Counted from the first letter of the stretch, positions 5,394 through 62,146 are shown. The stretch is 64,000 nucleotides of DNA from Bdellovibrionales bacterium (GCA_041740515.1 JBGSLV010000036.1:4429-68428); one strand, 5' to 3'. Notes: generated by a model from the letters alone, not told the origin. Translations and numbers: made by a program.

Positions 5394-6176
5394 ATGAAAC
5401 TTTACTTCATAATTTTGCAAGTCATTTTTTTTCAAATTTTATTAGCTTCTAATATATGGGCCAGTCCATTCTTTGCCAAAGAGAAGTTTCAGGTCGCTTT
5501 GGGTTTGCAAGCCGACTCACTGATTTATAAGCGAGGCATTATTACTTATGAAGGTCCTCAAGCCTTTCCAATTTATGCAGTGAGTTTATTTCATCCCGAT
5601 TTAATTTTGGCGGGCAGCGCCTTATACTATAAACAAAGAGTACTTTATGAAAATCTATATTTTCGAACACGACTTAATGTGAATTCAACAAACGATACGC
5701 CACTTTATTTTACAACTGAAAAAGAAGAAGACAGAATTCGAAGAGAAGACACAACTGAGCTTGACCTTTTCCTTGAGTATTTAATGCCCAACGAAAGTTT
5801 TTTGCGACTTAACTTGAGCCAAGATTTAGTAGCACACAAAGGACATTACTTAGAGCTTAGAGCAAGATTAGGTCTTCTAAATTTAATAAAAAACGAAGGT
5901 GAAAGAGCACTTATTCAGGCTGGGCTATTTGTCGCTGCTGGCTATGGGGACCAACGACATAATGAGTATTTTTACGGGCAAGGAGCCAATAAAAGTGGAG
6001 TTAACAATATTGAATATGGAATTTCAGTCGTAAGTCCAAAAGTGATTGATTTGTTTTGGCCGACTTTTACTATATCAAGATTTCATTTGTTGGGAGAAGA
6101 AAATAAAAATGGCTCTTTTGTCCAAGAACTTAAAGGTTGGTCAGCACAAGCTCTATTTGCTTTTAAAGTATGGTAA
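5394..6176 (+). CDS. outer-membrane beta-barrel protein (MipA/OmpV-like, tentative)
   Basis: Signal peptide MKLYFIILQVIFFQILLASNIWA after a GGAG RBS. Alternating amphipathic strands and a C-terminal aromatic residue (FAFKVW). Confidence 0.5.
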   Translation: MKLYFIILQVIFFQILLASNIWASPFFAKEKFQVALGLQADSLIYKRGIITYEGPQAFPIYAVSLFHPDLILAGSALYYKQRVLYENLYFRTRLNVNSTNDTPLYFTTEKEEDRIRREDTTELDLFLEYLMPNESFLRLNLSQDLVAHKGHYLELRARLGLLNLIKNEGERALIQAGLFVAAGYGDQRHNEYFYGQGANKSGVNNIEYGISVVSPKVIDLFWPTFTISRFHLLGEENKNGSFVQELKGWSAQALFAFKVW

Positions 6177-6212
6177 AAAATAAGTAAGGTTTAATCTCAA
6201 AATTACTTAGCC

Positions 6213-6584
6213 TTATTTAATAAAAATCAGTATCCACACCCCATAACCTACCACGGCGACTGCGCCCGCAAAATGAGTCAGCGAGGCTTTTTGATCACCG
6301 CAGCTTCTTACAACCATAAAATCCGACAAAGCCACAAGCCCGATACAAAATTGAATTAAAGCCATCTGAAGCCATAACTGATTAAAGTATAAAATTAAAA
6401 CAGTTAGACCCATAAATATATCCCTAATCCCAACACTTCTGACATAAGCTGTGGCCGTTCCACTTGCTTTGATACCAAAATTTTTGGACATAGGCTCTGG
6501 CTTCAAGATAGCGCCTAAGCCAATAAAAATTGTGGTTAAACCTATAAAAGGTGCTACAAAGTAAGAAAGTGCAATAAAGTCCAT
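6213..6584 (-). CDS. small integral membrane protein (about 4 TM helices)
   Basis: 123-aa ORF that is almost entirely hydrophobic helices. Confidence 0.6.
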   Translation of the reverse strand: MDFIALSYFVAPFIGLTTIFIGLGAILKPEPMSKNFGIKASGTATAYVRSVGIRDIFMGLTVLILYFNQLWLQMALIQFCIGLVALSDFMVVRSCGDQKASLTHFAGAVAVVGYGVWILIFIK

Positions 6585-9364: not shown

Positions 9365-10024
9365 CTATAAACTCTTATAAAGAAGCAGTTGCTCTTTTAG
9401 TATGAGCATAATCTGCTCCTGCTCGTCTTGGATATCAGCTCCTTTACCTTGCCTTAAGAGATGATCAAAAGAAGCGAATAAAATCATATGAATCGATCTG
9501 GTGCGACGGTAAAGATCAGGTTTAGACCAATGAGGGTAAGCCAAATTTAGCGCGTTTTGTATGCGAATAAAACCAGACTGAACTTCCGTTTTATAAATAC
9601 GACCCACTTCAGATCGTTCGGCAATGGCTGTCATTAAGGAGGAGATTCGACATAAATGGGGATATTCCGCAATCCATAAAAATATAGCCTCGGCCATTCT
9701 TAGTATGGTTTCGTCATAAGAGTTGGGTGGATATTTTAATATCAGATTTACAGTCGTTGTCCGACCTGTTTCGATCAAACATCGAAGCACGTCCTCTAAT
9801 ATTTCATCCATAGATTTATAGTGATACCTAAGTTTCTGCACCGACATTCCTGCCACTTTAGCCACGGCATTTAAGGACGTAGTTTGCGTGTCAGAATTCA
9901 ATATTGTAGCAATTGCCGCCCTTAAAATGTCACCTCGAATGCCACTTTCAAAGGAAACAGCAAGTTTAACGGCTTTAGGGAGGATTTTTTTATGCATTTT
10001 CATATTATAACAAAAAATTTTCAT
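9365..10024 (-). CDS. TetR/AcrR-family transcriptional regulator
   Basis: N-terminal HTH region RGDILRAAIATIL...LNAVAKVAGMSVQKLRYHYKSMDEILEDV. The true start may be one of the internal Met codons a few residues in. Confidence 0.8.
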   Translation of the reverse strand: MKIFCYNMKMHKKILPKAVKLAVSFESGIRGDILRAAIATILNSDTQTTSLNAVAKVAGMSVQKLRYHYKSMDEILEDVLRCLIETGRTTTVNLILKYPPNSYDETILRMAEAIFLWIAEYPHLCRISSLMTAIAERSEVGRIYKTEVQSGFIRIQNALNLAYPHWSKPDLYRRTRSIHMILFASFDHLLRQGKGADIQDEQEQIMLILKEQLLLYKSL

Positions 10025-10108: not shown

Positions 10109-10762
10109 ATGATCATAAAATTTAGCTTTTTAAGATGTTTTAAGTGGGTTTTAAGCGGAGTCTTAATACAAATGACCCTAGGTATGTCCGTTTGGGCTTT
10201 AGAATCTTCTTATCAATCCACCATAACCTATGAGCACTCTGAATTCGTTGAAGCCTTATTTCCAGATTTAAAGTCGGGCGATAAAGTTAAAATTGTTTTT
10301 GATGTCCCTATGAGTTCGGCTGTTGTAGATCACGACAAAGTTTATGGCCAAACCTATGTATTGAGCTTAAATGGACCCCACACCGTGACCATATTGGTGA
10401 ACGATACAGTACGAGGTTTACCATTCACTATTGCCAACAGTGGGCGCACTTCTTCAGGCAATCATATGACAATCGTTAATCCCCAAAATTTTGCCTTGCC
10501 CCCAGACATTCGGGCTTATGAAGCAGAACTGTGGACCAATGAAGGCCCTAATTCACAAAAAATTACTTTAAGTTTAGCTAAAGATCCTTCCTTGACACCA
10601 AACACTCTGCTTCAAATTGTTTTAAATGACACAGTCAAAGTAGGGACATCGGCTGATACTACTTCTAAATTAAGCTACCAAGCTCAACCTGGGGTCCGAA
10701 GCTTATCTCCTATAATGAATACTAATAATTTATGTAAAAATTATTTAAAAAATAATAATTAA
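10109..10762 (+). CDS. secreted protein of unknown function (217 aa)
   Basis: AAGGAG RBS and an N-terminal signal sequence ending SVWA. Confidence 0.6.
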   Translation: MIIKFSFLRCFKWVLSGVLIQMTLGMSVWALESSYQSTITYEHSEFVEALFPDLKSGDKVKIVFDVPMSSAVVDHDKVYGQTYVLSLNGPHTVTILVNDTVRGLPFTIANSGRTSSGNHMTIVNPQNFALPPDIRAYEAELWTNEGPNSQKITLSLAKDPSLTPNTLLQIVLNDTVKVGTSADTTSKLSYQAQPGVRSLSPIMNTNNLCKNYLKNNN

Positions 10763-10923: not shown

Positions 10924-13900
10924 TTATGGGCCGTAACACAAGGGTTGATTTCCACCCACCGGGGTCCCAGAAAAGCTTCCTGTGAATTGAAAGTAACCCA
11001 TCCCGACAGAGCACTGAACAGCTCCGTTATTAACAAAATTATGCTGATGTCTGAATTGATAAGTAGAGATGTCAAATATGCCGCTTGAAATATTGAGTAC
11101 TGGAGAATAGGTGCTGGACGATGCTAATCCACCATTTCCAATCAATGAAACTCTATTTGTACTAAGGTTTTTGTTAATCCGTAAACTTACACCACGACTG
11201 CCCATATAACCTGACCCACCAGGTTCAAAATAAAGTTGCGAGTCTGCCCCACCTACTAGATTTATATCCACATCCCTAATTGCACCATAACAATCCTTCG
11301 TAGCGGGGTTCTGACAATGATAATTTATATTTCCGTAGACATTAAAGACAGCAAACGTTGGAAAATCTGATTTTATTGTTCCATTGTGAATGTCCATATC
11401 TCCTTCAATATTTACAATAGAGTCCGAAGTAAATTTAATCGAGTATTCGTCTCCGGTGGGCCCATCATTCAAATCAAGGTCGCCGGCGATATTTAGTGCA
11501 AAGTCGTTAAAAATGATCCCCGGGCCATCTATATCTATAACCATGGCAGACCTATTGTCATTGCTATTTGTAACCGAATCAAACGAAACTAAACCGTTAT
11601 TATGATCAAAGAAGCCTCCAAGATATTCAAAACCAATTGATGAGCTCTCTGTTGCAAAACTCGTATTCGACCCCTCACCAAAGCTTAAATGCTTAGGTGC
11701 TACAAAAGTTCCTTGAATAAGTCGAAACCTTCCTAATCTAAAATATCCAACAGCAGGATTGGTTGCGATCTGATTAACGCCATTAGGATTATCAATGATA
11801 AAACCTGGTGCCGCAGCACCGTCATCAAAAGTGTATGTTTGCGGAGTTCCATCATTTCGATTAAATCGTAAAAACGTATGCGCCCGAATTCCAACAATGG
11901 AAGCCCCACCTGGAATCGCAGATACATTTAGATTTGAACCTAAATCTGAGCATCTATCTGAGGCCGCGATATTGTCACATTCGAAATTCGCATTTAAACC
12001 TTGATATCTAATTTCGCCTTGTAAAAAATGACCGTCTCTCCAGTCCAGATTAGTCGATACATTGATGATTTTATTTGTTCCGTAAATATGTGTGCTAGCT
12101 AAAGCTTTTCTTCCAAAAGTAGTCCCGGTTCCATTGGAATTATTATCAATTATTAAGTTGGCCAAGTTTAATTGTTGGTCCACAGAGAAAGCAAAAACTC
12201 GAACTCCGTTTAAGTTTGTAGAAGAATTGATATGAACAGTCCCGTTATTGTGGTTAAAAACGCCGGTCGCTGAAAGTGTAAAGCCACATTCTCTGGAGTT
12301 CTTCCAGTCCCAAGCAGGTGATCCAGTTTCGCAATTACTATTATTAAAGCTGCTTCCCATAAGCAAAGTGCCGGAAGTCGATGTGAAAGCACCACCGATG
12401 ATATTTAATCGATCGACAGTTAAATTCGCATTCCCACCTTGAAATGTTCCGGCTTCCATTTCCCATTTACCAAAGTTGGGTGCTGATCCTGTAGAGCTAC
12501 GAAGACCAACCTGAAAAGTGACACCAGGATTTTGAGTGATTGTCCCTGAGTAAGTTGGTTTCATATAAACACGCCGAACCTGAGTGTTCGCATTGATATT
12601 GACATTACAATTGCCTGTAACCAGACACTCGTCGTCAAAATATGTGAACGCTGTACTTGGTGGGATTGCATTCACTCTCCAGTTGGACGGCGTGGTCCAA
12701 AGACCATCGCCAGCAGTTCCTAACCATGTATAATCTGGAATAGCTATTCGTAAAAACATCACCCTTTGTATCGTCCCAATCCCATCGGAGATTGTGATAG
12801 TATAATTTTGTCCAACGTCATCACTGACCGTAGGAGTACCTGAAATCAATCCTGTTCCCGCATTTATAGTCAGGCCTGCAGGTAAGGAAGGTGAAATTGA
12901 AAAGTTTGTTGGCGCTCCAGCAACCACCGTCGCTGCCACACCTGCAGAGGGATCATTAAGTGGCGTGTATTTTGGTCCCGTAAATGTCCCAGGATAAGTG
13001 ACATTTAAATTTGTGTAATTGATTGTAATGCCAACTGAGCCTGATGGATTTAAAGCTTGGTCTATTTGATTGACGTTGACTACTTTAACTCCGAATGCTG
13101 CCGTTAAAGTAATTGCTCTTGAGTAAGCACTTGCTACACAAGTTGTAGCGACTGGAGACCCAACAATGTCACCACTGATATTCACCGTCGCCCCCGTTTC
13201 ACAGGCACCAGAAACTGTTTGGCTTACAGATGAAACGGTAAGGTTATTTGTAGGCGCTACAACAGTAGGTGTGCTTGGAGCTATAGTGTCTAAAGTTAAA
13301 CTGATGTTTGTTGCTGATGAAGTATTTCCTGCAGGATCAGTTTGTGTTGCACTAATTGATTTTAATCCTTGCGACGAAATTAATGTTATATTCACAACAG
13401 TATACGAAGACGAGGAACACGGAGCAATGACCGGTGATTCAGAAAAGTCTCCACTGACGTTCACAATAGCACCACTCTCGCAAGAGCCGGTTACACTTTG
13501 AAAAATGGTGTTGGTGAATGAACCGTTAACTGGTGCAGTTATTGTTGGTGCACTTGGTGCAGTTGTGTCTAAGGTGACAGTGATATTTGTGGCTAAAGAC
13601 GTGTTGCCTGCCAAATCGGTTTGTGTGGCACTGATAGCTTTACTGCCTTGGGATGCGGCCAACGTGATCGCTCGTGTATAAGCATTTGCTACGCACGCTG
13701 CTGTGAGTGGTGATCCTGTAAAGTCTCCGGTTAAATTTACAGTCGCGCCCGATTCACAAGATCCTGTTACTGTCTGTGCCGTAGTATTGGTAAGCGATCC
13801 ATTAGCTGGAGTAGTTATGGTGGGTGCTGTTGGTGCTACTGAATCAAAAGTGATATTTATATTTGTAGCCACTGATGTGTTTCCAGATGGATCTGTCTGT

Positions 13901-16419
13901 GTGGCACTGATGGCTTTACTTCCTTGAGCGACTGTCAACGTGATCCCTCGTGAATAAAGTGATGCCACACAAGTGGCTGTCAGCGGTGATCCGGCAAAGT
14001 CCCCGCTTAAGTTTACAGTGGCTCCCGTTTCACATGCTCCAGTTACTGTTTGTGCCGAGATGTTGGTTACGGCTCCGTTCGCCGGCGTTGCTATCGTTGG
14101 TGAACCTGGGGCCACAGCATCAAACGTAACGGTTATATTCGTAGCCACAGATGTGTTTCCCGAAGGATCTGTTTGAGTCACATTGATGGATTTACTTCCC
14201 TGAGATGCTGTCAGAGTGATGGCTCGGGAATACCAAGCCGCTGCACACAACTCGGTCAGAGGCGATCCGACAAAGTCCCCGCTTAAGTTTACTGTGGATC
14301 CGGTCTCACATGCTCCCGTCACCGTTTGAGCTGTGGTGTTGGTAAAAGCACCACTCACTGGTGTAAGTATTGTCGGTGCACTTGGGGCGGCTGTATCTAA
14401 AGTGAATGAAATATTGGTCGAAAGGGAAATGTTTCCAGCTATATCCGTTTGAATTGCACTTAAAGCTTTGGAACCATCACCCGCTGATAAGACTACTAAT
14501 CTGGAAAAAGCCGAAGCCACACAAGTAGTGGTTTGAGGAGAAGTCACGATATCCCCTGAAATGCTAACAATTGCCCCGGTCTCACAGGCACCAGTTACCA
14601 CTTGAGATGTATTGTTGGTTAAACTTCCATTTGCAGGCGACGTTATGGTTGGTGCTCCAGGTAAAGTTGAATCTAAAGTGATACTGATGTTTGTGACTAA
14701 AGAGGTGTTACCCGCCAAATCCGTTTGTGTGGCACTGATGGCTTTACTGCCTTCTGATGCGGTCAATGTGATGGCTCGTGAATAAAGGGATGCAACACAC
14801 GAAGCTGTCAGTGGCGATCCTGTAAAGTCTCCGCTTAAGTTTACAGTGGCCCCCGTTTCACAAGCGCCGTTGACTGTTTGCGAAGTGGTGTTAGTAAAAG
14901 ACCCATTTGCAGGAGCTGTGATACTTGGAGCTAACGGATCCACAGAGTCTAAAGTCACACTGATGTTTGTTGCACTTGAAATGTTTCCAGCTAAATCTGT
15001 TTGTGTGGCACTAATAGATTTACTTCCTTGAGCTGCGGTCAAAGTGATGGCTTGAGAGTATGCGTTGGTCACACACGCAGCTGTGATTGGTGATCCTGTA
15101 AAAGCTCCACTTAAATTTACTGTGGCCCCTGTTTCACAAGCGCCTGTTACAGTTTGGGTTGTGGTATTTGTTAATGCTCCGTTTGATGGTGTCACAACTG
15201 TTGGTGCACTTGGTGCGATAGTGTCTAAAGTCACGTTGATATTGGTAGTCACCGAAGTGTTACCAGCTAAATCTGTCTGTGTGGCACTGATCGATTTACT
15301 TCCTTGAGCAACTGATAGCGTGATAGCTCGTGAATAAGCATTCGCTACGCAAGAAGCTGTCAAAGGCGACCCCGTAAAATCACCGCTTAAATTAACTGTG
15401 GCACCAGTTTCACATGCACCAGTTACAGTTTGTGACGTGATGTTTGTAAATGAATTATTTACTGGTGTTAAGATCGTTGGAACCGAAGGAATAACATCAT
15501 CTAAAGTTATATTTAATAGGGAAGTTGGCGAAGTTCCAACACCATTGGTTTGTGAAACGTTAATAGCTTTTAAACCGTTTAATGCTGTTAAAGTCACACC
15601 TAAACTATAAGTATTTAACACACAAGCGGTAGTGACCGGAGCCCCAACTACGTCACCAAAAATATTCACTGTTGCTCCAGACTCACAAGCACCCGAAATA
15701 GTTTGTGCAACTAAGGAAGTAATTAGTCCTGCTGAAGGAGTTAGAATTGTGGGCATCAAAGGTAAAATCCCAAGACTCACACTAATTGCATCAGCTGCAG
15801 AGGTATTTCCAACAGAGTCAGTTTGTGTAGCTGAAATATTTTTAGCGCCATTACCTAATACCAAAGAAGTTGGAGTCGAAAAAGCCCCTGCCACACAAGA
15901 AACTAAGATAGTCGAACCTTCGATATCACCAAAAACACTGACTGTAGTTCCTGTTTCGCATGTACCCGAAACTGTAATTGGTGTTGAGTTAAATGAAGCG
16001 CCATTGATTGGATTTAAAATTACGGGAACTGTAGGTACAATAGTGTCTTTTAAAACTTGAATTGAAGCGCTAGCGGTCAAAAGCGCTTGAGTCGCAGATA
16101 TAGAAGTTAAACCTTCTGGCAATCCCGCAGTACTTAAATCCACTGCGCCACTAAACAATCCATTCACGCATGGAAAAGTTTGTGACACCAAACTTGGTAT
16201 TCCCACATTCACAGTCACGTCATTGTATTGGGGCACACACCGGCCTGAAACAGGATAGGTTACAACATTACTTGCAGTAATGTTTGGTAAAGACTGAAAA
16301 GATAAATCAAAACCTTTGATGCTAGAATTTTCTAGGCTTGAAACAATTTCGCCGCAACCTGTGGTTAGAAAAAGTGTTGCGATCGTGTAAACTGAGAGTA
16401 AAAAAAACTTGAAAAACAT
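10924..16419 (-). CDS. giant surface lipoprotein (1831 aa): 11 tandem two-Cys Ig-like repeats, a cadherin-like Ig domain and a C-terminal beta-helix-like region
   Basis: Start moved to ATG 16419 (MFFKFFLLSVYTIATLFLTTGC, lipobox-like). Repeats of about 92 aa follow the pattern P.AP.I..P.NG..TN...Q.V.G.CE.GA.V...GDF.GSP...C....YS..I.L....G.K.ISATQTD.AGN.S. Next comes FSISPSLPAGLTINAGTGLISGTP, then DYTWLGTAGDGLWTTPSNWR, which resembles autotransporter-associated beta-strand (PATR) repeats. Confidence 0.85.
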   Translation of the reverse strand: MFFKFFLLSVYTIATLFLTTGCGEIVSSLENSSIKGFDLSFQSLPNITASNVVTYPVSGRCVPQYNDVTVNVGIPSLVSQTFPCVNGLFSGAVDLSTAGLPEGLTSISATQALLTASASIQVLKDTIVPTVPVILNPINGASFNSTPITVSGTCETGTTVSVFGDIEGSTILVSCVAGAFSTPTSLVLGNGAKNISATQTDSVGNTSAADAISVSLGILPLMPTILTPSAGLITSLVAQTISGACESGATVNIFGDVVGAPVTTACVLNTYSLGVTLTALNGLKAINVSQTNGVGTSPTSLLNITLDDVIPSVPTILTPVNNSFTNITSQTVTGACETGATVNLSGDFTGSPLTASCVANAYSRAITLSVAQGSKSISATQTDLAGNTSVTTNINVTLDTIAPSAPTVVTPSNGALTNTTTQTVTGACETGATVNLSGAFTGSPITAACVTNAYSQAITLTAAQGSKSISATQTDLAGNISSATNISVTLDSVDPLAPSITAPANGSFTNTTSQTVNGACETGATVNLSGDFTGSPLTASCVASLYSRAITLTASEGSKAISATQTDLAGNTSLVTNISITLDSTLPGAPTITSPANGSLTNNTSQVVTGACETGAIVSISGDIVTSPQTTTCVASAFSRLVVLSAGDGSKALSAIQTDIAGNISLSTNISFTLDTAAPSAPTILTPVSGAFTNTTAQTVTGACETGSTVNLSGDFVGSPLTELCAAAWYSRAITLTASQGSKSINVTQTDPSGNTSVATNITVTFDAVAPGSPTIATPANGAVTNISAQTVTGACETGATVNLSGDFAGSPLTATCVASLYSRGITLTVAQGSKAISATQTDPSGNTSVATNINITFDSVAPTAPTITTPANGSLTNTTAQTVTGSCESGATVNLTGDFTGSPLTAACVANAYTRAITLAASQGSKAISATQTDLAGNTSLATNITVTLDTTAPSAPTITAPVNGSFTNTIFQSVTGSCESGAIVNVSGDFSESPVIAPCSSSSYTVVNITLISSQGLKSISATQTDPAGNTSSATNISLTLDTIAPSTPTVVAPTNNLTVSSVSQTVSGACETGATVNISGDIVGSPVATTCVASAYSRAITLTAAFGVKVVNVNQIDQALNPSGSVGITINYTNLNVTYPGTFTGPKYTPLNDPSAGVAATVVAGAPTNFSISPSLPAGLTINAGTGLISGTPTVSDDVGQNYTITISDGIGTIQRVMFLRIAIPDYTWLGTAGDGLWTTPSNWRVNAIPPSTAFTYFDDECLVTGNCNVNINANTQVRRVYMKPTYSGTITQNPGVTFQVGLRSSTGSAPNFGKWEMEAGTFQGGNANLTVDRLNIIGGAFTSTSGTLLMGSSFNNSNCETGSPAWDWKNSRECGFTLSATGVFNHNNGTVHINSSTNLNGVRVFAFSVDQQLNLANLIIDNNSNGTGTTFGRKALASTHIYGTNKIINVSTNLDWRDGHFLQGEIRYQGLNANFECDNIAASDRCSDLGSNLNVSAIPGGASIVGIRAHTFLRFNRNDGTPQTYTFDDGAAAPGFIIDNPNGVNQIATNPAVGYFRLGRFRLIQGTFVAPKHLSFGEGSNTSFATESSSIGFEYLGGFFDHNNGLVSFDSVTNSNDNRSAMVIDIDGPGIIFNDFALNIAGDLDLNDGPTGDEYSIKFTSDSIVNIEGDMDIHNGTIKSDFPTFAVFNVYGNINYHCQNPATKDCYGAIRDVDINLVGGADSQLYFEPGGSGYMGSRGVSLRINKNLSTNRVSLIGNGGLASSSTYSPVLNISSGIFDISTYQFRHQHNFVNNGAVQCSVGMGYFQFTGSFSGTPVGGNQPLCYGP
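13020..16050 (-). repeat. intragenic tandem repeat array, about 11 units of about 276 bp
   Basis: Long blocks recur at about 276-bp spacing at nucleotide level (e.g. ...gtttcacaagcgcc..gttac.gt.tg...). This produces a ladder of plus-strand shadow ORFs that all begin M.PVSQAP.TV. Confidence 0.85.
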
Positions 16420-16812
16420 ATTGTATATATCGGAATTGATTAACGTAAAGTTTATTAAACCATTGAAATTTAAAACTATTTTCTTACAAACCCAGTAACG
16501 CAACAATGTAATTTTATTTTCGCCCATCTTAGCCTGAAGTCGCACTTTAATACGTCAAAAACAAAAGAAGAAAACAAGATATCAAAGCTTTTGTCTCATA
16601 TTTATACGTTCTTTTAAATTTACATAAACCTTAGACATCAATCCTTGGTAGATCTAGGTCTTCTAAAGAGTATAAAGCTTGGTTTGAAAAACTACGATAA
16701 ACCGATTATAGTTGGTTTTAGGTAGATGCCTAAACAGTCTCATTTCTATTTTGAAAGTTCAAAGTAGATTCAAAAAAAACTAACCCATTGGTAATTATGG
16801 CTAAACGAAAAA

Positions 16813-17832
16813 ATGCACAAAACCATGTTTAAAGTTGAATATTATAGAGAAGACTGGGTTGAATGTCCTGAACTCGTTTATGCTGTTTTTAATTCAGATT
16901 TTGACAAAGTTCAAAATCTACTTAAAACTGAATCAGTGGACCAACAGGATCAGAAAGGACGATCAGCATTTGAGTGGTCCTTAGAAATATCAATTCAACA
17001 CAATCCACCAATTTTACAAAAAAAAATATTGAGTTTACTTTTAGCCAAAAAGCCCAACCCATTTTTAAATTCGAAATCTGAAGTCGGTTGTTTTGAATAT
17101 ATTTACAAAGGCCATAAAGCTGAAATCACGAAGCTACTTTTAAACTCTTTTGATTCCAAGAATCTACTAAATTTAAAACAAAAATCTGAACTAGCTACTA
17201 AAGCATTACATCGTGGTAACTTTGAAGCTTATCAAGTTTTGATTCAAGCTTGGGGTGTTAAAAATTTATACTCAGCTCCATTTCAGACAACGGACTTACA
17301 TCTCGCCTGCCAATTCGGTTCCTACCTTGCAGCTTCTAAAGCTCTAGATACTATTAATGATGTAAATTTATTAAATGAACTTGGACAAACACCTTTAGAT
17401 CTAATCACGTTAACAAAAAAAGGTAGCCAAAGCGATAAAAAGTTAATCCAAGACTTACTAAAAAAGCAAGGTGGAGTCTTAAATTATTTAACAGCAACTG
17501 AGTATATTGAACTGCCGATATACACAAAAATGAATCATCAAAACTATTTGAATGGAGCTATTAATGTTAAACATCCTAGCACTTGGTTCATTAAAAATAT
17601 TTTCACCCTTTCTGAAACTGAAGCTATCCTAATTATAGAAAGTGAAAAAAATATTGATCAAAAAGATCTTTTGAATGGGACAGCATTATATTGGTCTGTA
17701 TATAAACACTGCTTACAATCAGACAACACCAAAGTCATAAACAAATTACTTGAACGAGGTGCCGATCCAAATATCGTCCACCATTTTATGGGTTCAATTC
17801 AAGACCTAAAAATGCATTTTAATCGATTTTAA
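16813..17832 (+). CDS. ankyrin-repeat protein
   Basis: Ankyrin-like signatures: DQKGRSAFEWSL, TTDLHLACQFGSYLAASKAL, NELGQTPLDL, NGTALYWSV....VINKLLERGADPN. Confidence 0.75.
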   Translation: MHKTMFKVEYYREDWVECPELVYAVFNSDFDKVQNLLKTESVDQQDQKGRSAFEWSLEISIQHNPPILQKKILSLLLAKKPNPFLNSKSEVGCFEYIYKGHKAEITKLLLNSFDSKNLLNLKQKSELATKALHRGNFEAYQVLIQAWGVKNLYSAPFQTTDLHLACQFGSYLAASKALDTINDVNLLNELGQTPLDLITLTKKGSQSDKKLIQDLLKKQGGVLNYLTATEYIELPIYTKMNHQNYLNGAINVKHPSTWFIKNIFTLSETEAILIIESEKNIDQKDLLNGTALYWSVYKHCLQSDNTKVINKLLERGADPNIVHHFMGSIQDLKMHFNRF

Positions 17833-18874: not shown

Positions 18875-21800
18875 TTAAAATACCGCCGCTAACCCTAAGC
18901 TTAAAGCTCGCCCCCGTTGAAAGCTTGATACCACAAAATCCCCTTGTGTGCGCGTCACATCTGGATCTAAAAGATTTTGAGCCCGGAAAGTTAAATTTAA
19001 ATTCTTTTTTATTTTTTGAATAATCGATAGATCTAGCTGATGGATCGGCTGCTCATAAGTATCTGGTCGCCCCCCATCCCCCACATCTGTAATTCGTGGT
19101 CCCACAATGTTATATACCAGGGTCGTATTTAAATTGTACCAGGGCAAAGTTACATCAACACCAAAATTTAATAAGTAGGGGGATTGACCTTGTAGTGGTC
19201 TGGAAAAAGTAGTGGAGTTTCCTTTCTCTTCAGCGGACAAACGAACCTGTGAAGCAATTAACGAATAATTGCTAAAAACTTCGGTATTAAATCCTGCACC
19301 TAAAAATTCCGTGATGTCTTTACGGATTTCAAATTCAATCCCCGAGTTACTGGCTTCACTGATATTTCGATATGATCTTATGGTATCCGTGGAATTGACC
19401 GCGTAAGCTTCAATTGGATTTTCAAAGTTTTTTAGAAATACACCAACTGAAAGTAATTCTTTGGAGGTTGGATACCAATCCCATCTAAAATCAAAGTTAG
19501 TTATCCCGGCGGCAACAAGATCAGGATTTCCTATTTCATAAATGTTGTCGTTATCATTTAAAAATCTTGCCGGTGACAACTCTTTGAAATCTGGCCTTGA
19601 TACTGTTTTGGTAAAACCAAATCTAAGAGAGTGCTTTTGACTTAAAGCAAAATTTAAACCTAATGAAGGCAGAAAATCATCGGTTGCAAGCGCAGTGTTT
19701 ACACTAGATGTTGAAGAGTTTAAATCAAATGTATTCACATTCTGAGTCGAGCGCTCGAGCCTTAGGCCATAAACAAGTTGGGGCTTGAAGTAGTCATAAC
19801 CTGTGGCTGTGTTATACTTAAAATTAAAAGTATTAGAAGCTTGGATATAAAATGCATTTACATCTTGATCGGCCAAATAATTATCCGTTGGTAGTGTTGA
19901 ATCAATTAGTCGAAAACCACCCGGCCTAATATTCTCATCACTTAAGATATCATCAAGGGCGTCTTGCCGATTATAGGCCACTTGCGAGCCCGCAGTAGAA
20001 TCATTCCTAAATTTGAATCTTCGAACGTTAAACTCTCGGTCTTTATTGATATTTTGAAAGCCTAATTTAAGTCCAACATCCATAAAGGCGGTGGCCGAAG
20101 TTTTAAGTCGAGCCTGACTTTCATAAGATATTTTAAAATCATTCAAAACTTCATTCAAAGCCGAAAAGCTTCGCTCATTGCCATACACTTTATCATCAGC
20201 AAACAATAACTGCTCATTGATTTTCAAATAGTAATACTCCCGAAAATCAGGTTCATCTAACTGCGCTTGGCTGTTAGTAAAACCCCATGTTAACTTAGGG
20301 CCTTTATCAGATGATGTAAATTTATGAACTCCTGAAATCTGCATGGTATTAAGTTCACGCTCTTGCCATCTTAGTCGATAAATATTTGCTGTATCGTCAA
20401 TATTATTTCTGCCATCTCGCTCTATGGCGACTGTCGAATTTAAACTAGAACGGGTAATTACTTGGGTCGCATTGATTTGATGGTTTTTAAAAATCTCTAA
20501 GCCTAAGCCAAAAATGCCACCAAAATTGATAGTATTTTCTGTCTGAGTATTATTGTCTTCAAGTCCAACAACCCCTTCACTTTGAGTCACCATGTCGACC
20601 CTTCGCTGCAAAATCAAATCTGTATCAGTGGCATTGGCATAGGCGAGCTTAGCTGTCCCACCAATTTTAAAAATATTTCCGCGCTTAAACCTATCCCCCA
20701 TTTCAAAGTTCATTCCAAAATTAGCCGGCAGCGAAGCTTCTTTGACATTATAATTTCGAGAAAAACTTTGACCTAAAGCTTCAATCTCTTCGCCCGTAAA
20801 ACCACTGCCATCATTCACTGCAAAAGGATTGTCATCCACAAGATTGTTGATATCTCGGTTTTGCTTTAAAACCGATTTCACAGCCTCTGGTAAGCCTCGA
20901 ATATTATTTTGATCATACCCCGTCCAATCGGAATTTGAATTGGCATGAAATAATCCACGCTCCTTTCCTGTTAATACGTCTTCGGAACTTACGCCTACAT
21001 TCACACTCATACGAGCAAAGGCCTGGTCAGGGATGGATTTGGTCGTAATGTTCACCACCCCGCCCCCAAACTCTGACAACTGATCAGCACTATAGGTTTT
21101 TTGTACTTCGATACTTTCTATGAGTGCAGACGGAAACATATCTAAGGGCACAACTCGTCTTGAAGGATCAGGGCTTGGCAACATACTTCCATTTAATAAT
21201 GTGGACGAGTACCGCTCCCCTAAGCCCCGAACATAAATATATTTTCCATCAACTAAACTTAAACCCGTCACACGCCTTAGAGCTGAAGCCGCACTGCTAT
21301 CCCCCGATTTTGCCATTTGCTCTGAACCTAAAAGATCTTTCACTGACATGGATGACTTTCGTTGATTTAACATCGAAGACACACTGCCCTTAACATGAGG
21401 TGCAATAACGGTAATTTGGTCCAAAGCAATTCCTGAAGGTTGAAGAGCCAATTCAAGTTTTGGATACTTTAAAGGCCAAGGAACTGATTCCGACCATGTC
21501 ACATAAGAGGCATGTACAACGGCCATTTCAATAACATTTTTAGTTAAATTAGATGAATTAAAACTAAGAACAAATTCACCTTGGTCATTTGTAATTGCTG
21601 TTAAATTTAAACTTGGAACTAAAACGTTAGCATTATTTATAGGTCGAAAGGATTCTTTATCCACAACTCGACCTTGAATTTTTGCATCGGTAGAATTTAA
21701 AGCTTTAATTTCGGTATTACTTGCAACGGCATTTTGAGGAAAATTTGAACCCGTACTTTCGGCATCTATAGAAGCCCTATTTAATGCTGAATATTTTGAT

Positions 21801-28815: not shown

Positions 28816-29058
28816 AATCCCCCCGTGAGATATTCATTAATTATTAAATTTTGTTCTTACGGGCTTGAAGTTAATTGAGACTTGGTTTTTTAGTCATGTT
28901 AAGAAAGGGTCAACCGAGTTTCTTAACAACTTCTTAATTTTTGTTTTAAATTTTGACTAGATCTTAACGCTTAATCTTGTTTTATAAGATTTGATTTAAA
29001 ATCTGAAATGACACAAGCATTAAAAGTTTATTTTTTGTAAAGATGGATTTTAAAAAAA

Positions 29059-29084
29059 AAGCCACATGTTTGAACATGTGGCTT
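29059..29084 (-). terminator. rho-independent terminator downstream of 29235..29879
   Basis: AAGCCACATGTT / AACATGTGGCTT inverted repeat, followed on the minus strand by a 9-T run. Confidence 0.7.
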
Positions 29085-29234
29085 GATACTAATAAATTTT
29101 AATCATTAAAAAAATTTACTTAATAAATATTATAATAGGGTTGCAACAATTTATTTTCGTCTGTGTTAGCTTTTAGTCGCTTTGTAATTCAACGAAGGCG
29201 ATATAAATCATAACACCATTAACTTGCCACTCGT

Positions 29235-32765: not shown

Positions 32766-35135
32766 ATGTCTGAGCTTAATACTGTTGTTTTAACTAAAGC
32801 CTATAAAAATCTAAGTTATCAACCAGAGCAGATTCTTAAATCGTTACAAATGTTAATCGATGAAAAGTCCACGATTCCATTTGTTTCTAGATATCGAAAA
32901 GAAGCCACAGGAGGGCTTGATGATCTAGCCCTGATTGAAATCTTGGATACCTATAATGACGGTGTGGAGCAAGAAGACCGAAGACTATTTATTCTTGAAA
33001 CGATAAAAAAACTTGAAAAGTTAACTCCTGAATTAGAAAAAGCCATATTAAATGCCAATTCATTAAATCAACTGGAAGACCTCTATGCTCCTTACAAAAG
33101 TAAAGTCAAAACTAAGGCCCAAGTGGCTTTTGAAAAAGGCTTAAAACCTTTAGCTGAACTTTTAAAAACAACAACCCTAAAGCTGCATGAATTGGAGAGC
33201 CAGAAAGGCAAAGAGTTTCTTACCAAAGAAAATCAATTGGTAACCTTTACTGAAGCTGTTGATGGCGCATCGGATATCATCATTGAAGAGATTGCCAACA
33301 CTCCCGAACTCAAAGACGAATTCAGACGAATGTATTGGGTGGATGCCACTTTAAAATCAAAACTAAAAAAGGGCGCTGAAAAAATTGCGGATCACGTCAA
33401 GTACCAAGATTATTTTGAGTTTGAACAAAAGCTTGCAACGCTGAAAGAGCCCAAAAATAATTTTAGATTCTTAGCACTTCGCCGAGGTGCCAATGAAAAG
33501 ATTCTTAGTCTTGATCTAGTCTTTGACGAAGTGTTTGCTAGCAAAATTATTAAAGCAAAAATGTTTCCTAAGCTCTCGTCCTTAGGATGCCAAGAGGTTT
33601 TAGAGTCTTGCGTTCAGAAAGCTTACATCCAATACATTCACCGAAGTTTAGAAACTGAGATTAAAAGTGAACTTAAAGATTTAGGGGATGAATCTGCGAT
33701 TAAAATATTTGGTGAAAATTTAAAAAATTTACTTTTGCAACCCTATATTGGGCAAAAAGCCATTTTAGGATTAGATCCTGGAGTTCGAACAGGTGTTAAA
33801 GCTGTTGCTATCGACAAAAATGGCAACTATCTTTTTGACTCTGTTGTATATCCTCACCCACCTAAAAACGACAAAGTGGGCTCCGCAAAAACAATCAATT
33901 TGTTTTTAGAAAAATTTAATATCGAGTTTATCGCGATCGGTAGTGGAACTTATGGCCGCGAGACCTTACAATTTTTGCAAGAACATATTCCATTAGTCCA
34001 AACAAATAAAGTTAAAGCCGTTCTTGTGAATGAAGATGGAGCAAGTATTTATTCGGCTAGCGCCATAGCGCGTGAAGAGTTTCCTGATAAAGATGTCACG
34101 GTTCGAGGGGCTATAAGTATCGCAAGGCGCTTTCAAGATCCTTTAGCCGAATTAGTAAAAATAGATCCAAAGTCTATTGGTGTTGGTCAGTATCAACATG
34201 ATGTTAATCCCGTGAAGTTAAAAAAATCTTTAGGCTATGTTGTCGAAGCCTGCGTGAATCATGTGGGTGTAGATTTAAATACCGCCAGCTTCTCGCTTTT
34301 GTCTTATGTTTCTGGCATTGGACCTGGTGTTGCAAAAAGTATAGTTACAACTCGGGAAAAACTAGGGGGATTCAAAGACCGAAAGCAACTGCTTAAAGTC
34401 TCTCGCTTTACTGAAAAGACTTTTGAACAGTCCGCAGGATTTTTACGAATTCATGGTGGACCTAATCCTTTAGACGCTACTTTCATTCACCCCGAGGCTT
34501 ACCCCATCTTAGAAAAGTGGTGCAAAACTAATAAAATCAAACTTGAGGATTTACCAAAATCCAAAGAAAATATCGAGCTCCTAGCGAAAGATAAAACTTT
34601 CAGATCTGATATTGGTGATTACACACATGATGATATCGTAAAGTGCTTAAAGGCTCCCACACAAGATCCTAGAACAGCTTTTGAGCCCTTCAGTTATCGT
34701 AATGACATCAAAGAGATTCAAGATCTAAAGTTAGGTCAAATTTATCCAGGTCTGGTCACCAACATCACTCAGTTTGGGGCGTTCGTAGATATTGGCATCA
34801 AAGAAAATGCTCTTATTCATATTTCGCAAATGTCGGATACCTTTGTTGACAATCCACTGGCTGTTTTAAAAGTTGGCGAAACTGTGAAAGGACGACTGAT
34901 TGATTTAGATGTAGATCGAAAACGCATTTCGCTGTCGTTAAAATCTAACCCCGAGATGGGTAATAAAACGAATTCGAATCAACGACCTAAAAATAGTGAT
35001 CGGTCTATAAAATCTGTTGATAGAGTCAACAATAAATACGATGGTCCTCAAAAGAATAAATCTAATAACAGGCCGATTGATACTTCTAACGAAAGCTCAA
35101 ATCCCTTTGCGGCCCTAAAAAAACTTAAACTTTAA
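32766..35135 (+). CDS. tex: Tex transcription accessory protein (YqgF/HHH/S1 domains)
   Basis: N-terminus IPFVSRYRKEATGGLDD, YqgF-like GLDPGVRTGVKAVAID, HHH region, and a C-terminal S1 domain (GQIYPGLVTNITQFGAFVDIG...GRLIDLDVDRKRISLSLK). Confidence 0.92.
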   Translation: MSELNTVVLTKAYKNLSYQPEQILKSLQMLIDEKSTIPFVSRYRKEATGGLDDLALIEILDTYNDGVEQEDRRLFILETIKKLEKLTPELEKAILNANSLNQLEDLYAPYKSKVKTKAQVAFEKGLKPLAELLKTTTLKLHELESQKGKEFLTKENQLVTFTEAVDGASDIIIEEIANTPELKDEFRRMYWVDATLKSKLKKGAEKIADHVKYQDYFEFEQKLATLKEPKNNFRFLALRRGANEKILSLDLVFDEVFASKIIKAKMFPKLSSLGCQEVLESCVQKAYIQYIHRSLETEIKSELKDLGDESAIKIFGENLKNLLLQPYIGQKAILGLDPGVRTGVKAVAIDKNGNYLFDSVVYPHPPKNDKVGSAKTINLFLEKFNIEFIAIGSGTYGRETLQFLQEHIPLVQTNKVKAVLVNEDGASIYSASAIAREEFPDKDVTVRGAISIARRFQDPLAELVKIDPKSIGVGQYQHDVNPVKLKKSLGYVVEACVNHVGVDLNTASFSLLSYVSGIGPGVAKSIVTTREKLGGFKDRKQLLKVSRFTEKTFEQSAGFLRIHGGPNPLDATFIHPEAYPILEKWCKTNKIKLEDLPKSKENIELLAKDKTFRSDIGDYTHDDIVKCLKAPTQDPRTAFEPFSYRNDIKEIQDLKLGQIYPGLVTNITQFGAFVDIGIKENALIHISQMSDTFVDNPLAVLKVGETVKGRLIDLDVDRKRISLSLKSNPEMGNKTNSNQRPKNSDRSIKSVDRVNNKYDGPQKNKSNNRPIDTSNESSNPFAALKKLKL

Positions 35136-35138
35136 TGC

Positions 35139-35234
35139 TTTAGTACTTTAGTACTCTAGTAATTTAATAATTTGGTATTTTAGTATTTTAAAATATTAAA
35201 ATATTAAAATATTAAAATATTAAAATATTATTAA
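35139..35234. repeat. degenerating 8-bp tandem array (about 12 units)
   Basis: Reads in register as tttagtac tttagtac tctagtaa tttaataa tttggtat tttagtat tttaaaat attaaaat x4 attattaa. It starts 4 nt after the tex stop codon. Confidence 0.8.
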
Positions 35235-35434
35235 AAACAAAATTGACACTAACTTAATTTTCACAAAACAAAAAATCGAAGTCGCTACTCCTAAAATTAA
35301 GTTAATATCTTGTGTTAACTTAATTTTAGCTTGTCTAGCTGAGTGAATAGAATAAAAGGGATATAAGAAGAGTTAAGCCAAGATGTATGGCTTATTTTAT
35401 TTTACAACCAATATACAAATTCCAGGGGGGAATT

Positions 35435-35887
35435 ATGACACTATTAAATAAGATACTATTTATCGCTGTTGCACTTTTTAGTTTTAACACTTTTGCTACA
35501 GTTGATGGCTTTACTGAAGCTTGGATTGTTGTTGAAGATTTTAATGAAGAGGACAGATTTTTTGTCCAAAAAGTCCCCGTTATTGGATGTTATGGTTTGC
35601 CTCAAGGCCCGCAAGTTGTTCAGTTTGTTTCTGAATATAAAGTTAAATCATCTTTAGGTTGTGGGGACGATAGTGAAGATATGATGAACATCAATGCTTT
35701 ATCCTGTGCCACACTTGAAGACTCTATCGAAGATGATGCTTTCATGGCTTATAAAAAAGTAGTGTTGAACATATCTAAATGTCCCCAAAAAAATAATAGC
35801 AAATTTATCAGGTTAGAACAGCTGCAGCTAAAAACTTTCCTCAATTCAAAAATGGCAAGTATGTTGCTAAACCTGAAGTTGAATTAG
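35435..35887 (+). CDS. small secreted Cys-containing protein (150 aa)
   Basis: GGGGGG RBS, then MTLLNKILFIAVALFSFNTFA signal peptide. The ORF track start at 35387 is less likely. The C-terminal 30 aa look low-complexity. Confidence 0.5.
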   Translation: MTLLNKILFIAVALFSFNTFATVDGFTEAWIVVEDFNEEDRFFVQKVPVIGCYGLPQGPQVVQFVSEYKVKSSLGCGDDSEDMMNINALSCATLEDSIEDDAFMAYKKVVLNISKCPQKNNSKFIRLEQLQLKTFLNSKMASMLLNLKLN

Positions 35888-44232: not shown

Positions 44233-44317
44233 AATGATCCTTCCATGCTATTTATCGAGAAAACAGTAGGTACTCTTGATGTAGTATCAGGGTTTCTAAA
44301 CTATAGACTTGTTTTAT

Positions 44318-44342
44318 TTTTTAAGATTTTCTTAAGATTTCA
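44318..44342 (-). promoter_or_regulatory. conserved intergenic element, copy A (TTTTTAAGAT-ttt-CTTAAGATTTCA)
   Basis: 22 of 22 nt identical, apart from a 3-nt indel, to copy B at 60830-60851. Lies about 85-110 nt upstream of the PEGA/TPR lipoprotein start. Confidence 0.35.
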
Positions 44343-44462
44343 GATTCTTAAATATGCATTTTTTGTATTGAAAAAATTAAGCCTTAAATTGAAACAAATA
44401 AGACTTAAGTCGTGCAAAAACAATACTTCGTTAAATTTAATATGGCCGATAATTGCATTGAT

Positions 44463-60591: not shown

Positions 60592-60829
60592 CTTTACTCT
60601 CCCGCTTACGTACAAATTCTTTAACAAAATTGAACAGATATTTATCGTCATGTTATATAAAGTCCTGCAGATTCTAAGAGGACATAAGTGTTTCAATTTA
60701 AGAATAGACTAAATTTTAAGACCAAAGTTCAGAAAACAAATCTTAAGATTAGGTTAAAGGATAAATCTTCATCACTCATCCAACGTAGTGGATTTAAGTG
60801 TATCAAAATAAGAATTTATTATGTTCTGA

Positions 60830-60851
60830 TTTTTAAGATCTTAAGATTTCA
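60830..60851 (-). promoter_or_regulatory. conserved intergenic element, copy B (TTTTTAAGAT-CTTAAGATTTCA)
   Basis: Same element as 44318-44342. Lies about 240 nt upstream of the 1953-aa lipoprotein start, in a 342-bp intergenic region that also holds the palindrome AATCTTAAGATT (60739-60750). Confidence 0.35.
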
Positions 60852-60933
60852 TGCAGAACACATTTTGAAAATGCACAAAAATATCCTTTTGAGACACTAA
60901 GATTTGTAAACATTAAGACACTATAGATTGGCT

Positions 60934-62043
60934 TTAAAAACTTAAAGCTACATAGGCATTGAACTGGTCTGTGTTTATTTTTTCAAGGGTATCGGTAAAT
61001 CTGTGGCTTGAGTATGAAAACCCATACTGTACTCTTCGAAGATTGTTTAAATTTTGGGTTAAATCCAAACTTAATTTTAAGGATCTTTCGCTAATAGGCT
61101 CCGAAAAATCATATGGTCTATAACTAATTTCAGCTCCGTAACTGATATCACTGTCACGATAGAATTCGGTTCGTAAACCCAAATCAAAGCCATATAAACC
61201 CGAAAATCCAAAAGGTGCACCTAAGGAAAAAAGGTTTATCGTGCCGCCGCCCAAAGTAATACGACTTCGATATTTAGGATTACGCACCAATGGGATTAAG
61301 TAACTTAAACCTACCCTGCCCTCAAAAAACTGTGGGTTTTCCTCCACTGGGGATGACGTATAGGTGAACAGTGTCAATAAAGCATCTGCAAAGTATCCCA
61401 ATTTATACCCTTTTTCAGGAGATGTGTACTTGGCTCCAACGAGTAAAGCTTGGGATACAAAAGTTCCAAATGAACTTTGACGATAGATCAAATACGAATG
61501 CCCAATGGAAAAAAATACCGAGTCAAAAACATTGGCCATTTTATACTCCCTAGCTTCAGGAGCAAAAAGATACAAGGTTTCACCAACTCGTTCATTCTTT
61601 GGTCCAACCGCTGTCAGATATAGCGTGCTAATTCTAGATCTAAGATAAGCGTAAACGACGTATTCACCTTCGACATCTGACTTCCGAACAGGTTCCTTAT
61701 CACTCAAAAAGATTTTCCATCCGGGTTTATTATACTTAAGTTTAAGCTTTACCATGGGTCTAAAGTTTTCACCCTGAGGCACCAAATAAACTGGAACTTT
61801 ATCAGTTTCTAATATTAAATCTTCAATACTACTGCTGCTTGTTTTATCTCTTAGAATGTGGGCTATCCAAAGCGCTTGTTTGGATTTATAAACTTCTCTA
61901 TCTTCAGGGGTGATCTGTTTGGAATTATTTGGTGTTATAGGCTTAGCAGCATCTATGGCTGGAACAGCATCTGGTTTAGACACTCCCTCAGCCAAGACGT
62001 TTTGTAAATGGAGCATCAGTGCAAATAGCAGCAAAATTTTCAT
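60934..62043 (-). CDS. outer-membrane protein: periplasmic N-domain plus C-terminal beta-barrel (369 aa)
   Basis: Signal peptide MKILLLFALMLHLQNVLA (start moved to ATG 62043). The C-terminal half has alternating aromatic/Gly strands and ends ...NAYVALSF with a terminal Phe. Confidence 0.6.
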   Translation of the reverse strand: MKILLLFALMLHLQNVLAEGVSKPDAVPAIDAAKPITPNNSKQITPEDREVYKSKQALWIAHILRDKTSSSSIEDLILETDKVPVYLVPQGENFRPMVKLKLKYNKPGWKIFLSDKEPVRKSDVEGEYVVYAYLRSRISTLYLTAVGPKNERVGETLYLFAPEAREYKMANVFDSVFFSIGHSYLIYRQSSFGTFVSQALLVGAKYTSPEKGYKLGYFADALLTLFTYTSSPVEENPQFFEGRVGLSYLIPLVRNPKYRSRITLGGGTINLFSLGAPFGFSGLYGFDLGLRTEFYRDSDISYGAEISYRPYDFSEPISERSLKLSLDLTQNLNNLRRVQYGFSYSSHRFTDTLEKINTDQFNAYVALSF

Positions 62044-62146
62044 ACTTTTAAGGTTCTCAAATACTAAGACTTCTGACAATGAATATCAGCGAGATGAATA
62101 AGTAATTAACCGAAATAGTCTAAAATAGTTTTGACAGGTGTATATA

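Follow-up and report, generated by a model that had tools for sequence, protein, structure and literature searches.

Is the 22-nt element that recurs in two intergenic spacers of an uncultured Bdellovibrionales bacterium an operator through which two operons of surface-protein genes are co-regulated? The window analysed is the whole 64,000-nucleotide stretch GCA_041740515.1 JBGSLV010000036.1:4429-68428, in which every gene between 41122 and 63496 is on the minus strand. Spacer A (230 bp) precedes an operon encoding a TPR-lipoprotein of 240 amino acids (aa), a 588-aa protein and a 224-aa protein, and spacer B (341 bp) precedes three giant lipoprotein genes. Both are 27-28% G+C and were counted together as 572 bp. 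An earlier note on this DNA had described the element as a direct repeat with the geometry used by OmpR/PhoB-type response regulators and had argued from it that the two operons are co-regulated. The evidence is sequence only, from seven relatives and, for the source genome, about 64 kb. The short boxes that make up the element are enriched in both spacers, and each spacer also has a conserved sigma-28-type promoter motif. There is about an even chance, in our judgement, that the box arrays are binding sites of one sequence-specific regulator, upstream of separate sigma-28-type promoters.

The element, TTTTTAAGAT[ttt]CTTAAGATTTCA at 44318-44342 with a second copy lacking the ttt at 60830-60851, is present exactly as it had been described, in both sequence and position. 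The plus strand reads TTTTTAAGATTTTCTTAAGATTTCA at copy A and TTTTTAAGATCTTAAGATTTCA at copy B. All of the flanking genes being on the minus strand, the two copies are indeed oriented alike with respect to transcription. The ATG at 44232 of the 240-aa lipoprotein gene is 86-110 nt downstream of copy A, and the ATG at 60591, the probable start of giant gene 1, is 239-260 nt downstream of copy B. On the transcribed strand each copy consists of two head-to-tail hexamer half-sites (CTTAAG, CTTAAA), with the orientation left ambiguous by the palindromic CTTAAG. Copy B contains the perfect palindromes TTAAGATCTTAA and ATCTTAAGAT. At copy A, Tandem Repeats Finder reports a repeat of 11-bp period and 2.4 copies (44316-44340). 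An inverted repeat, TGTTCTG / CAGAACA (60822-60828, 60854-60860), brackets copy B and is found neither at copy A nor in the orthologues.

For a single pair the match between the spacers is unusual, its gapped local alignment score of 36 being reached in 16 of 5000 dinucleotide shuffles; taken with the enrichment of the boxes, it is convincingly more than chance. An expectation of about 0.03 for the shared 12-mer, as had been estimated, is right to within an order of magnitude for this pair of spacers. The A-B alignment ranks third among the 136 intergenic spacer pairs of the window; those with an equal or better score are AT matches of low complexity, long and with many gaps. When the exact words shared by any two spacers are ranked by information content, the top two are both from A-B: TCTTAAGATTTCA, in the same orientation, and the 14-mer CTTAAATTGAAACA. 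The 14-mer, the most information-rich exact match of all spacer pairs, is at 44383-44396 (+) and 60689-60702 (-), thus in opposite orientation relative to transcription, and in spacer A it covers the junction of the 21-nt tandem repeat. A dispersed repeat resembling a repetitive extragenic palindrome or a miniature inverted-repeat transposable element is not what the spacers share, their similarity amounting to 33 aligned positions and the inverted 14-mer, with no terminal inverted repeats. Recent duplication of a whole promoter region was also rejected, as nothing aligns outside the motifs.

The decisive evidence is the enrichment of the boxes, not the single pair match. The observation is, in this respect, stronger than the earlier note had made it. 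That the element is built of repeated TTAAGA/TCTTAA boxes had been recognised; the consensus is AAATCTTAAGA, with the core TCTTAA(G/A/T), and the three exact copies of AAATCTTAAGA in the window are all in spacers A and B. Counting both strands, spacer A has 4 TCTTAA against a shuffle mean of 0.47 (3 of 1000 shuffles reach 4) and spacer B has 8 against 0.78 (0 of 1000 reach 8). Together this is 12 where 0.95-1.25 are expected (p about 5e-10). Fourteen control spacers, from which 28816-29234 was left out, have 4 TCTTAA in total and none is enriched. An unbiased ranking of words in A and B places CTTAA, TCTTAA and CTTAAGA first at k = 5, 6 and 7. TTAAG/CTTAA occurs 17 times in the two spacers (29.7/kb), compared to 4.75/kb in the other 15 spacers and 3.9/kb in the whole window, and CTTAAG 4 times compared to none in 4.2 kb of other spacers. 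Within spacer B, ATCTTAAGATT is present twice, 98 bp apart (one copy at 60740-60750), and the element recurs in degenerate form at 60887-60905. Such internal repeats bear out a modular make-up. The 22-25-nt element would be the best-preserved box pair in arrays of a short motif, which occupy both spacers and no fewer than two further 5' regions.

These other arrays mean that the boxes are not exclusive to the giant-lipoprotein cluster, to which the element had been assigned. The third array contains 4 TCTTAA against 0.71 expected, a number reached in 8 of 1000 shuffles. Downstream of it is an operon for a 440-aa protein, DUF3450, ExbB, ExbB, ExbD, TonB, a TPR protein and a TonB-dependent receptor. 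The fourth array is within the signal-peptide codons of a secreted-protein gene (10109-10762) that is divergent from a TetR-family gene (9365-10024), and the third copy of TTTTTAAGAT in the window sits within it.

The spacing of the boxes is not random. Of 23 same-orientation box pairs no more than 33 bp apart in 13 spacers, 6 are separated by exactly 11 bp; uniform placement gives a mean of 0.55 such pairs, and none of 5000 random placements reached 6. Steps of 7 bp and 8 bp each occur twice. Head-to-tail spacing of 11 bp is a hallmark of regulators of the OmpR/PhoB class. The geometry that had been attributed to the element is thus reasonable for copy A, which has the 11-bp step favoured across the arrays, but does not fit copy B, with its step of 8 bp. 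The palindromes TTAAGATCTTAA and ATCTTAAGAT would be compatible with a symmetric dimer at copy B.

Three known systems resemble these arrays. The PmrA (BasR) box of Salmonella and Klebsiella, CTTAAG-N5-xTTAAT, is bound head-to-tail by a response regulator of the OmpR/PhoB family (PMC3973317). Its half-site, CTTAAG/CTTAAT, and its 11-bp centre distance are both found at site A and in the B spacers of two relatives, with CTTAAG-gttgt-CTTAAG in L012 and CTTAAT-acagt-CTTAAT in L094; all three agree with the PmrA box nearly to the letter. Here, however, each spacer has 6-8 boxes, which point in either direction, and only 2 bp separate the boxes of copy B. Most of the sites, moreover, are a long way from the probable promoters downstream, and these are of the sigma-28 and not the sigma-70 type. 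A PmrA-like site is expected at or just upstream of the -35, and of A, B and the B spacer of L094 only the last has its boxes there, CTTAAT-acagt-CTTAAT lying directly against its -35 box. The host, furthermore, is an uncultured Bdellovibrionales bacterium, and the likeness is one of box sequence.

CtrA of the Alphaproteobacteria, also of the OmpR/PhoB class, controls motility and surface genes through the box TTAA-N7-TTAA(C). Site A and several other pairs are exact TTAA-N7-TTAA, whereas copy B does not fit and the requirement for a flanking C/G (TCTTAAG) differs from that of this alphaproteobacterial protein. The F1-F2-F3 sites of OmpR at ompF are an example of a multi-site response-regulator array. 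Like these, the arrays in the window have several tandem, roughly helically phased sites upstream of envelope-protein genes; unlike them, they are known from sequence alone, have mixed orientations, and are irregularly spaced beyond adjacent pairs.

The 22-mer is not the strongest signal shared by the two spacers. The strongest that is both shared and conserved is a sigma-28-type motif, TnnAG-N16-nCGATA, which the earlier note did not flag. All 14 of the A and B regions from the window and its orthologues, when aligned by anchoring on CGATA, have TnnAG, exactly N16, and (T/A/C)CGA(T/A) (Table 1). The match to the consensus is 4/5 in the -35 and 5/6 in the -10 for promoter A, and 3/5 and 5/6 for promoter B. 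Promoter A is 21-24 nt and promoter B about 50 nt upstream of its start codon. In B. bacteriovorus the sigma-28/FliA consensus from transcription start site mapping is TTAAG-N16-CCGATA, present in 92 of 140 attack-phase promoters (PMC3627812), and FliA controls many surface proteins there (PMC12622784). The two spacers resemble the Bdellovibrio FliA promoters in that T..AG-N16-nCGATA precedes the start codons of surface-protein genes where it would be expected. They differ in that the match is at 44253-44279 and 60643-60669, not at the 22-mer, and in the degenerate -35 of promoter B in the window (TGCAG).

In the window there are 4 matches to TNNAG-N17-CGATA where 1.2 would be expected, three of them in spacers and upstream of genes in the sense direction (A, B and 16673-16699). 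The last, TAAAG-N16-ACGATA on the plus strand, precedes an ankyrin-repeat gene (16813-17832). A loose FliA scan with 3 mismatches allowed is non-specific, with 85 matches in the window, and the claim for promoters is therefore carried by conservation. Nor is CGATAAATA significant as a window-wide motif without the -35, the spacer and conservation; it has 6 exact copies, only 2 of which are in spacers. From the sequences, we infer that sigma-28 would read both promoters. The start of giant gene 1 is probably the ATG at 60591, with the ribosome-binding site GGGAGAG, and the listed TTG at 60696 an over-extension, because of this binding site, because the orthologues align from residue 2, and because the predicted promoter is inside the TTG extension.

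Since the conserved motif common to both spacers matches the FliA consensus, co-regulation of the two operons, as the earlier note had proposed, is plausible, but mainly through the sigma-28-type promoters and not through the 22-mer. Co-expression of the operons is in this sense a prediction.

The nearest relatives are metagenome-assembled genomes (MAGs) labelled Bdellovibrionales or Pseudobdellovibrionaceae. Orthologous loci were compared from four at 57-70% amino-acid identity (L002/L008/L014, L004/L009, L007/L013 and L012) and three at about 50% identity (L092, L093/L095 and L094/L096). A profile search of genome contigs with an FG-GAP alignment found three true orthologous loci; the same alignment against metagenome contigs gave no orthologue among the matches listed, only unrelated FG-GAP proteins at 39% identity or less. 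Global MAFFT alignment misplaced conserved blocks in the B spacers, and the comparison was anchored on motifs instead.

The 22-nt unit, which the earlier note had treated as a single element, is not kept as a unit in the relatives. In the A orthologues of the 57-70% relatives only the promoter-proximal box keeps its position, as ATCTTAAA in L002, AACTTAAA in L007 and a variant in L004, which also has TCTTAATATCTTAAT, again with an 8-bp step. In the B orthologues, copy B is kept only at its TGAAAT edge, and the boxes after that edge only in L012 (the proximal box). The element was not found in the three relatives at about 50% identity. Because the relatives do not share the 22-mer, the near-identity of the two copies is probably recent. 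It could be due to convergence on the box consensus, slippage of the 11-bp/8-bp units, or gene conversion.

The boxes nevertheless recur as clusters in some of the orthologous spacers. The B spacer of L012, which carries TTAAGatagtCTTAAGgttgtCTTAAG, has 7 TCTTAA against 1.04 expected (0 of 1000 shuffles). Enrichment is moderate in the B spacers of L013 (4 against 1.27) and L009 (3 against 0.81) and in the A spacer of L004 (2 against 0.25). Within L014 and within L013 no box clusters are denser than those of the A and B orthologues, and within L012 none is denser than that of the B orthologue. Recurrence of clusters in spacers that cannot be aligned would fit turnover of sites under selection for a cluster, rather than one conserved operator.

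Two other blocks are conserved. AGTCTATAGTTTAGA is kept in all seven A orthologues, including those from the relatives at about 50% identity, and ends 15-18 nt upstream of the -35. A second promoter may have its -10 region in this block, 16 nt past the proximal box, or the block may be the site of another protein. If it is a second -10, copy A would be a class-II-type activator site; a PmrA-like position is likewise possible for copy A, should the conserved TATAGT serve as a second -10. In three genomes the AAAATGTGTTCTGCATGAAAT block precedes the start of giant gene 1 by about 260-270 nt.

Table 1. Elements, box arrays, probable promoters and conserved blocks of the window, with the sigma-28-type motifs of the A and B regions
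Feature	Position	Strand	Sequence and remarks
Copy A	44318..44342	-	Transcribed strand TGAAATCTTAAGAAAATCTTAAAAA; two boxes, 11-bp step, CTTAAG-N5-CTTAAA (CTTAAG-aaaat-CTTAAA)
Copy B	60830..60851	-	Transcribed strand TGAAATCTTAAGATCTTAAAAA; two boxes, 8-bp step, CTTAAG-at-CTTAAA
Box array A	44318..44412	.	Six C/G-anchored TTAA boxes; includes 21-nt tandem repeat 44367-44408
Box array B	60698..60925	.	Seven boxes (8 TCTTAA words, both strands)
Third box array	28899..28974	-	TTAAGcgTTAAGA and TTAAGAagttgTTAAGA; TTAAGA boxes, one 11-bp pair, one 7-bp pair
Fourth box array	10130..10167	+	TTAAG, TTAAG, TTAAG, CTTAA at 10-, 11-, 12-bp steps
Sigma-28 (FliA)-type promoter A, probable	44253..44279	-	TCAAG-N16-TCGATA(AATA); TPR-lipoprotein/588-aa/224-aa operon
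Sigma-28-type promoter B, probable	60643..60669	-	TGCAG-N16-ACGATA(AATA); three giant lipoprotein genes
Conserved block AGTCTATAGTTTAGA	44295..44309	-	Consensus AGnCnWTRGTnTAGA; between copy A and sigma-28 -35 box
Conserved block AAAATGTGTTCTGCATGAAAT	60846..60866	-	B orthologues AAAATnTGT..C.T..TGAGAA; 3' end is the TGAAAT edge of copy B
A region: window, L014, L004, L013			TCAAG-N16-TCGATA
A region: L092			TCAAG-N16-CCGATA
A region: L095			TAAAG-N16-CCGATA
A region: L096			TAAAG-N16-ACGATA
B region: window			TGCAG-N16-ACGATA
B region: L014			TAGAG-N16-TCGATA
B region: L009			TCTAG-N16-TCGATA
B region: L012			TCCAG-N16-TCGATA
B region: L013			TCCAG-N16-ACGATA
B region: L093			TCAAG-N16-CCGAAT
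B region: L094			TTAAG-N16-CCGATC

Binding of the boxes by one regulator is the reading that we prefer, and, from the 11-bp head-to-tail step (TTAA-N7-TTAA), the candidate would be a response regulator of the winged-helix OmpR/PhoB class whose half-sites resemble those of PmrA or CtrA. Several copies of it may bind upstream of the promoters and modulate them. Each operon would have its own FliA-type promoter, separate from the boxes, which would be a lineage-specific extra layer over sigma-28 control. That a protein binds the boxes, and to which class it belongs, we infer from the motif and its spacing.

A number of observations weigh against this reading. There is no response-regulator gene in the window, where the only regulator genes are of the TetR and MerR families. 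The 8-bp step at copy B puts its boxes on different faces of the helix, a misfit for a tandem OmpR/PhoB dimer, and 8-bp pairs are likewise found in the A spacer of L004 and the B spacer of L094. Relative to the sigma-28-type promoters the element is at about -72 to -96 in A and about -194 to -215 in B. Box orientation varies: in the sense direction, most boxes are TCTTAA in A and B but TTAAGA at 28899-28974 and 10130-10167. The array at 10130-10167 is in coding sequence and was noticed post hoc. Neither spacer of L014, one of the 57-70% relatives, has significant box enrichment. In L004 a five-box cluster that includes TCTTAATTCTTAA and ACTTAAGAAAATTTT (19549-19668) sits between convergent genes, a position in which a promoter would be unexpected. 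The enrichment, finally, was established over about 64 kb of the window and about 100 kb from the relatives.

It is possible, if unlikely, that the boxes have no function and reflect AT-rich composition and slippage (of 11-bp ATTTT(T/C)TTAAG in A and of 8-bp units in B), with the identity between A and B coincidental. The 11-bp tandem at 44316-44340, the other short AT-rich tandem arrays of the window and the similar gapped scores of other spacer pairs would all suit this, as would the loss of the 22-mer in the relatives and the lack of enrichment in L014. Slippage does not readily account for boxes that are scattered over 100-230 bp rather than in tandem only, and the enrichment survives dinucleotide shuffling, most clearly in spacer B and its L012 orthologue, while the 14 control spacers are not enriched. 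Independent clusters in unalignable orthologous spacers and an 11-bp bias that holds across species also argue for function.

It is improbable that the boxes are instead parts of promoters, with ATCTTA/TCTTAA as a -35 for TATAGT (A) or CATAAT (B) 16-18 nt downstream, or with TTAAG as a sigma-28 -35. TTAAG is indeed the published FliA -35 word, AnCTTA is exactly 16 nt upstream of a conserved T(A/T)(T/A)(A/G)GT in A and two orthologues, the first box in B is 18 nt upstream of CATAAT, and the boxes in the B spacer of L094 abut a true -35. The element itself was tried as a complete FliA promoter and rejected, because its TTAAG words have no CCGATA-like partner (no CGATA-like hexamer at N15-17) on either strand. 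Most of the boxes in B are CTTAA, not TTAAG, in the sense direction, and a scan with the sigma-70 consensus found no promoter on the transcribed (minus) strand of either spacer. The conserved block in A ends in TAGA, its A-11 not being conserved, and a promoter would need far fewer boxes than the 6-8 of each spacer.

Instead of sites for a dedicated regulator, the arrays could also be where a nucleoid-associated or silencing protein is loaded, or curvature elements of phased A-tracts; either would mark surface-protein loci that are AT-rich and may have been acquired. In favour are the many sites, spread in both orientations over 100-300 bp, the cluster in the promoter-less convergent spacer of L004, and the block of giant genes, an indel because it is missing in L092. 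The conserved TCGATAAAT is presumably similar to the high-affinity motif of H-NS, which we take to be tCGATAAATT. This explanation is distinctly improbable, since the motif is specific and contains G/C, equally AT-rich spacers are without it, the exact 11-bp preference fits a dimeric site-specific binder, and CGATA at a fixed N16 from T..AG fits a sigma-28 promoter better.

The least probable of the readings considered is that the element acts in RNA, as a terminator, a processing site or a small RNA target in read-through transcripts. It may be transcribed, there being no terminator between the upstream genes and the spacers, and the 150 nt around copy B fold better than shuffles (z -2.4), with copy B as the loop of a GUGUUCUG/CAGAACAU stem. 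No significant structure is seen at copy A (z -1.2, +0.3) or in the 81-nt core of B (z -0.5), however, and the flanking stem is absent in A and the orthologues. No terminator-like site, with a hairpin and U-run, was found on the minus strand of either spacer, and an Rfam scan of the whole window gave no matches.

Perfect palindromes centred on CTTAAG, including the two ATCTTAAGATT in B, are enriched about 20-fold in the two spacers. Dam with Lrp at pap and Dam with OxyR at agn43 are examples of switches based on methylation. By analogy, methylation of CTTAAG palindromes by a CTTAAG-specific DNA methyltransferase could compete with a box-binding regulator as a heritable, phase-variable on/off switch of the giant surface lipoproteins, although we regard this as highly improbable. 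In a less exotic variant, a lineage-specific regulator is retained, and its TTAAG boxes, by mimicking the sigma-28 -35 word, may titrate FliA, or compete with it, at the operons of surface proteins.

Should the boxes prove to be genuine sites of a regulator, they would mark out a small regulon of envelope and surface proteins in an uncultured Pseudobdellovibrionaceae-like predator. It would comprise the giant fn3/FG-GAP/NHL lipoproteins, the FliG-like/TPR/outer-membrane protein (OMP) operon, the ExbBD-TonB system and a secreted protein, and would be layered on an attack-phase programme of the B. bacteriovorus FliA type. The regulator could then be sought more easily, as could the conditions in which the predator puts the adhesin-like giants on display. 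With the sigma-28-type promoters, the picture of FliA as the master sigma of the attack phase would take in a second Bdellovibrionales family and genes for giant lipoproteins, a result that helps annotation and is conceptually expected. A literature search for the motif with Bdellovibrio returned only primer noise. Both features, an array of binding sites and a promoter for an alternative sigma factor, are of familiar kinds, of which this is one more case.

Some of the gene labels within the cluster have changed. The 240-aa protein had been called a PEGA protein; its Pfam match is to TPR instead. The 588-aa protein, described as FliG-like, does have a match to FliG_M, but it is below threshold (E 0.0099), and a PDB sequence search with this protein gave no match. 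The giant proteins have fn3, FG-GAP and NHL/Big_1 domains in Pfam and lipobox-like N-termini. Spacers A and B had been considered the only two sizeable intergenic regions of the cluster; there is a third, of 130 bp, at 62017-62146.

The arrangement of the cluster varies among the relatives. L092 (GCA_054003375.1, 11093-11249) has no giant genes, and an OMP-like gene is followed directly by a TPR/577-aa/233-aa operon with TCAAG-N16-CCGATA. Because the three giant genes are missing there, the giant block is seen as an insertion or deletion between two sigma-28-type promoters. In L011, from the sample of MAG GFS_9291, a Y1-transposase gene (5939-6487) follows the OMP-like gene and the giant genes are on another contig; this is either the insertion of an insertion sequence or an assembly break at the B spacer. 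In L092 (about 11216-11252) and L095 (about 1786-1822) the sequence CCGATA-tgaaac-ATG places the start codon 6 nt past the -10 hexamer, which suggests that the mRNA of the TPR-lipoprotein gene may be leaderless in these distant relatives. The upstream flanks of L092-L094 have motA/motB-like genes a few genes from the cluster, a hint, when added to the FliG-like protein and the sigma-28 promoters, that the cluster may be connected with motility or the attack phase.

Elsewhere in the window, tandem repeats of 276 bp (2.6 and 2.8 copies, about 75% matches) are present at 13615-15450, inside an open reading frame of 1873 aa (10924-16545). At 35129-35230, in the spacer upstream of the gene at 35387-35887, there are adjoining 8-bp tandem arrays of ACTTTAGT (7.8 copies) and TTAAAATA (5.4 copies).

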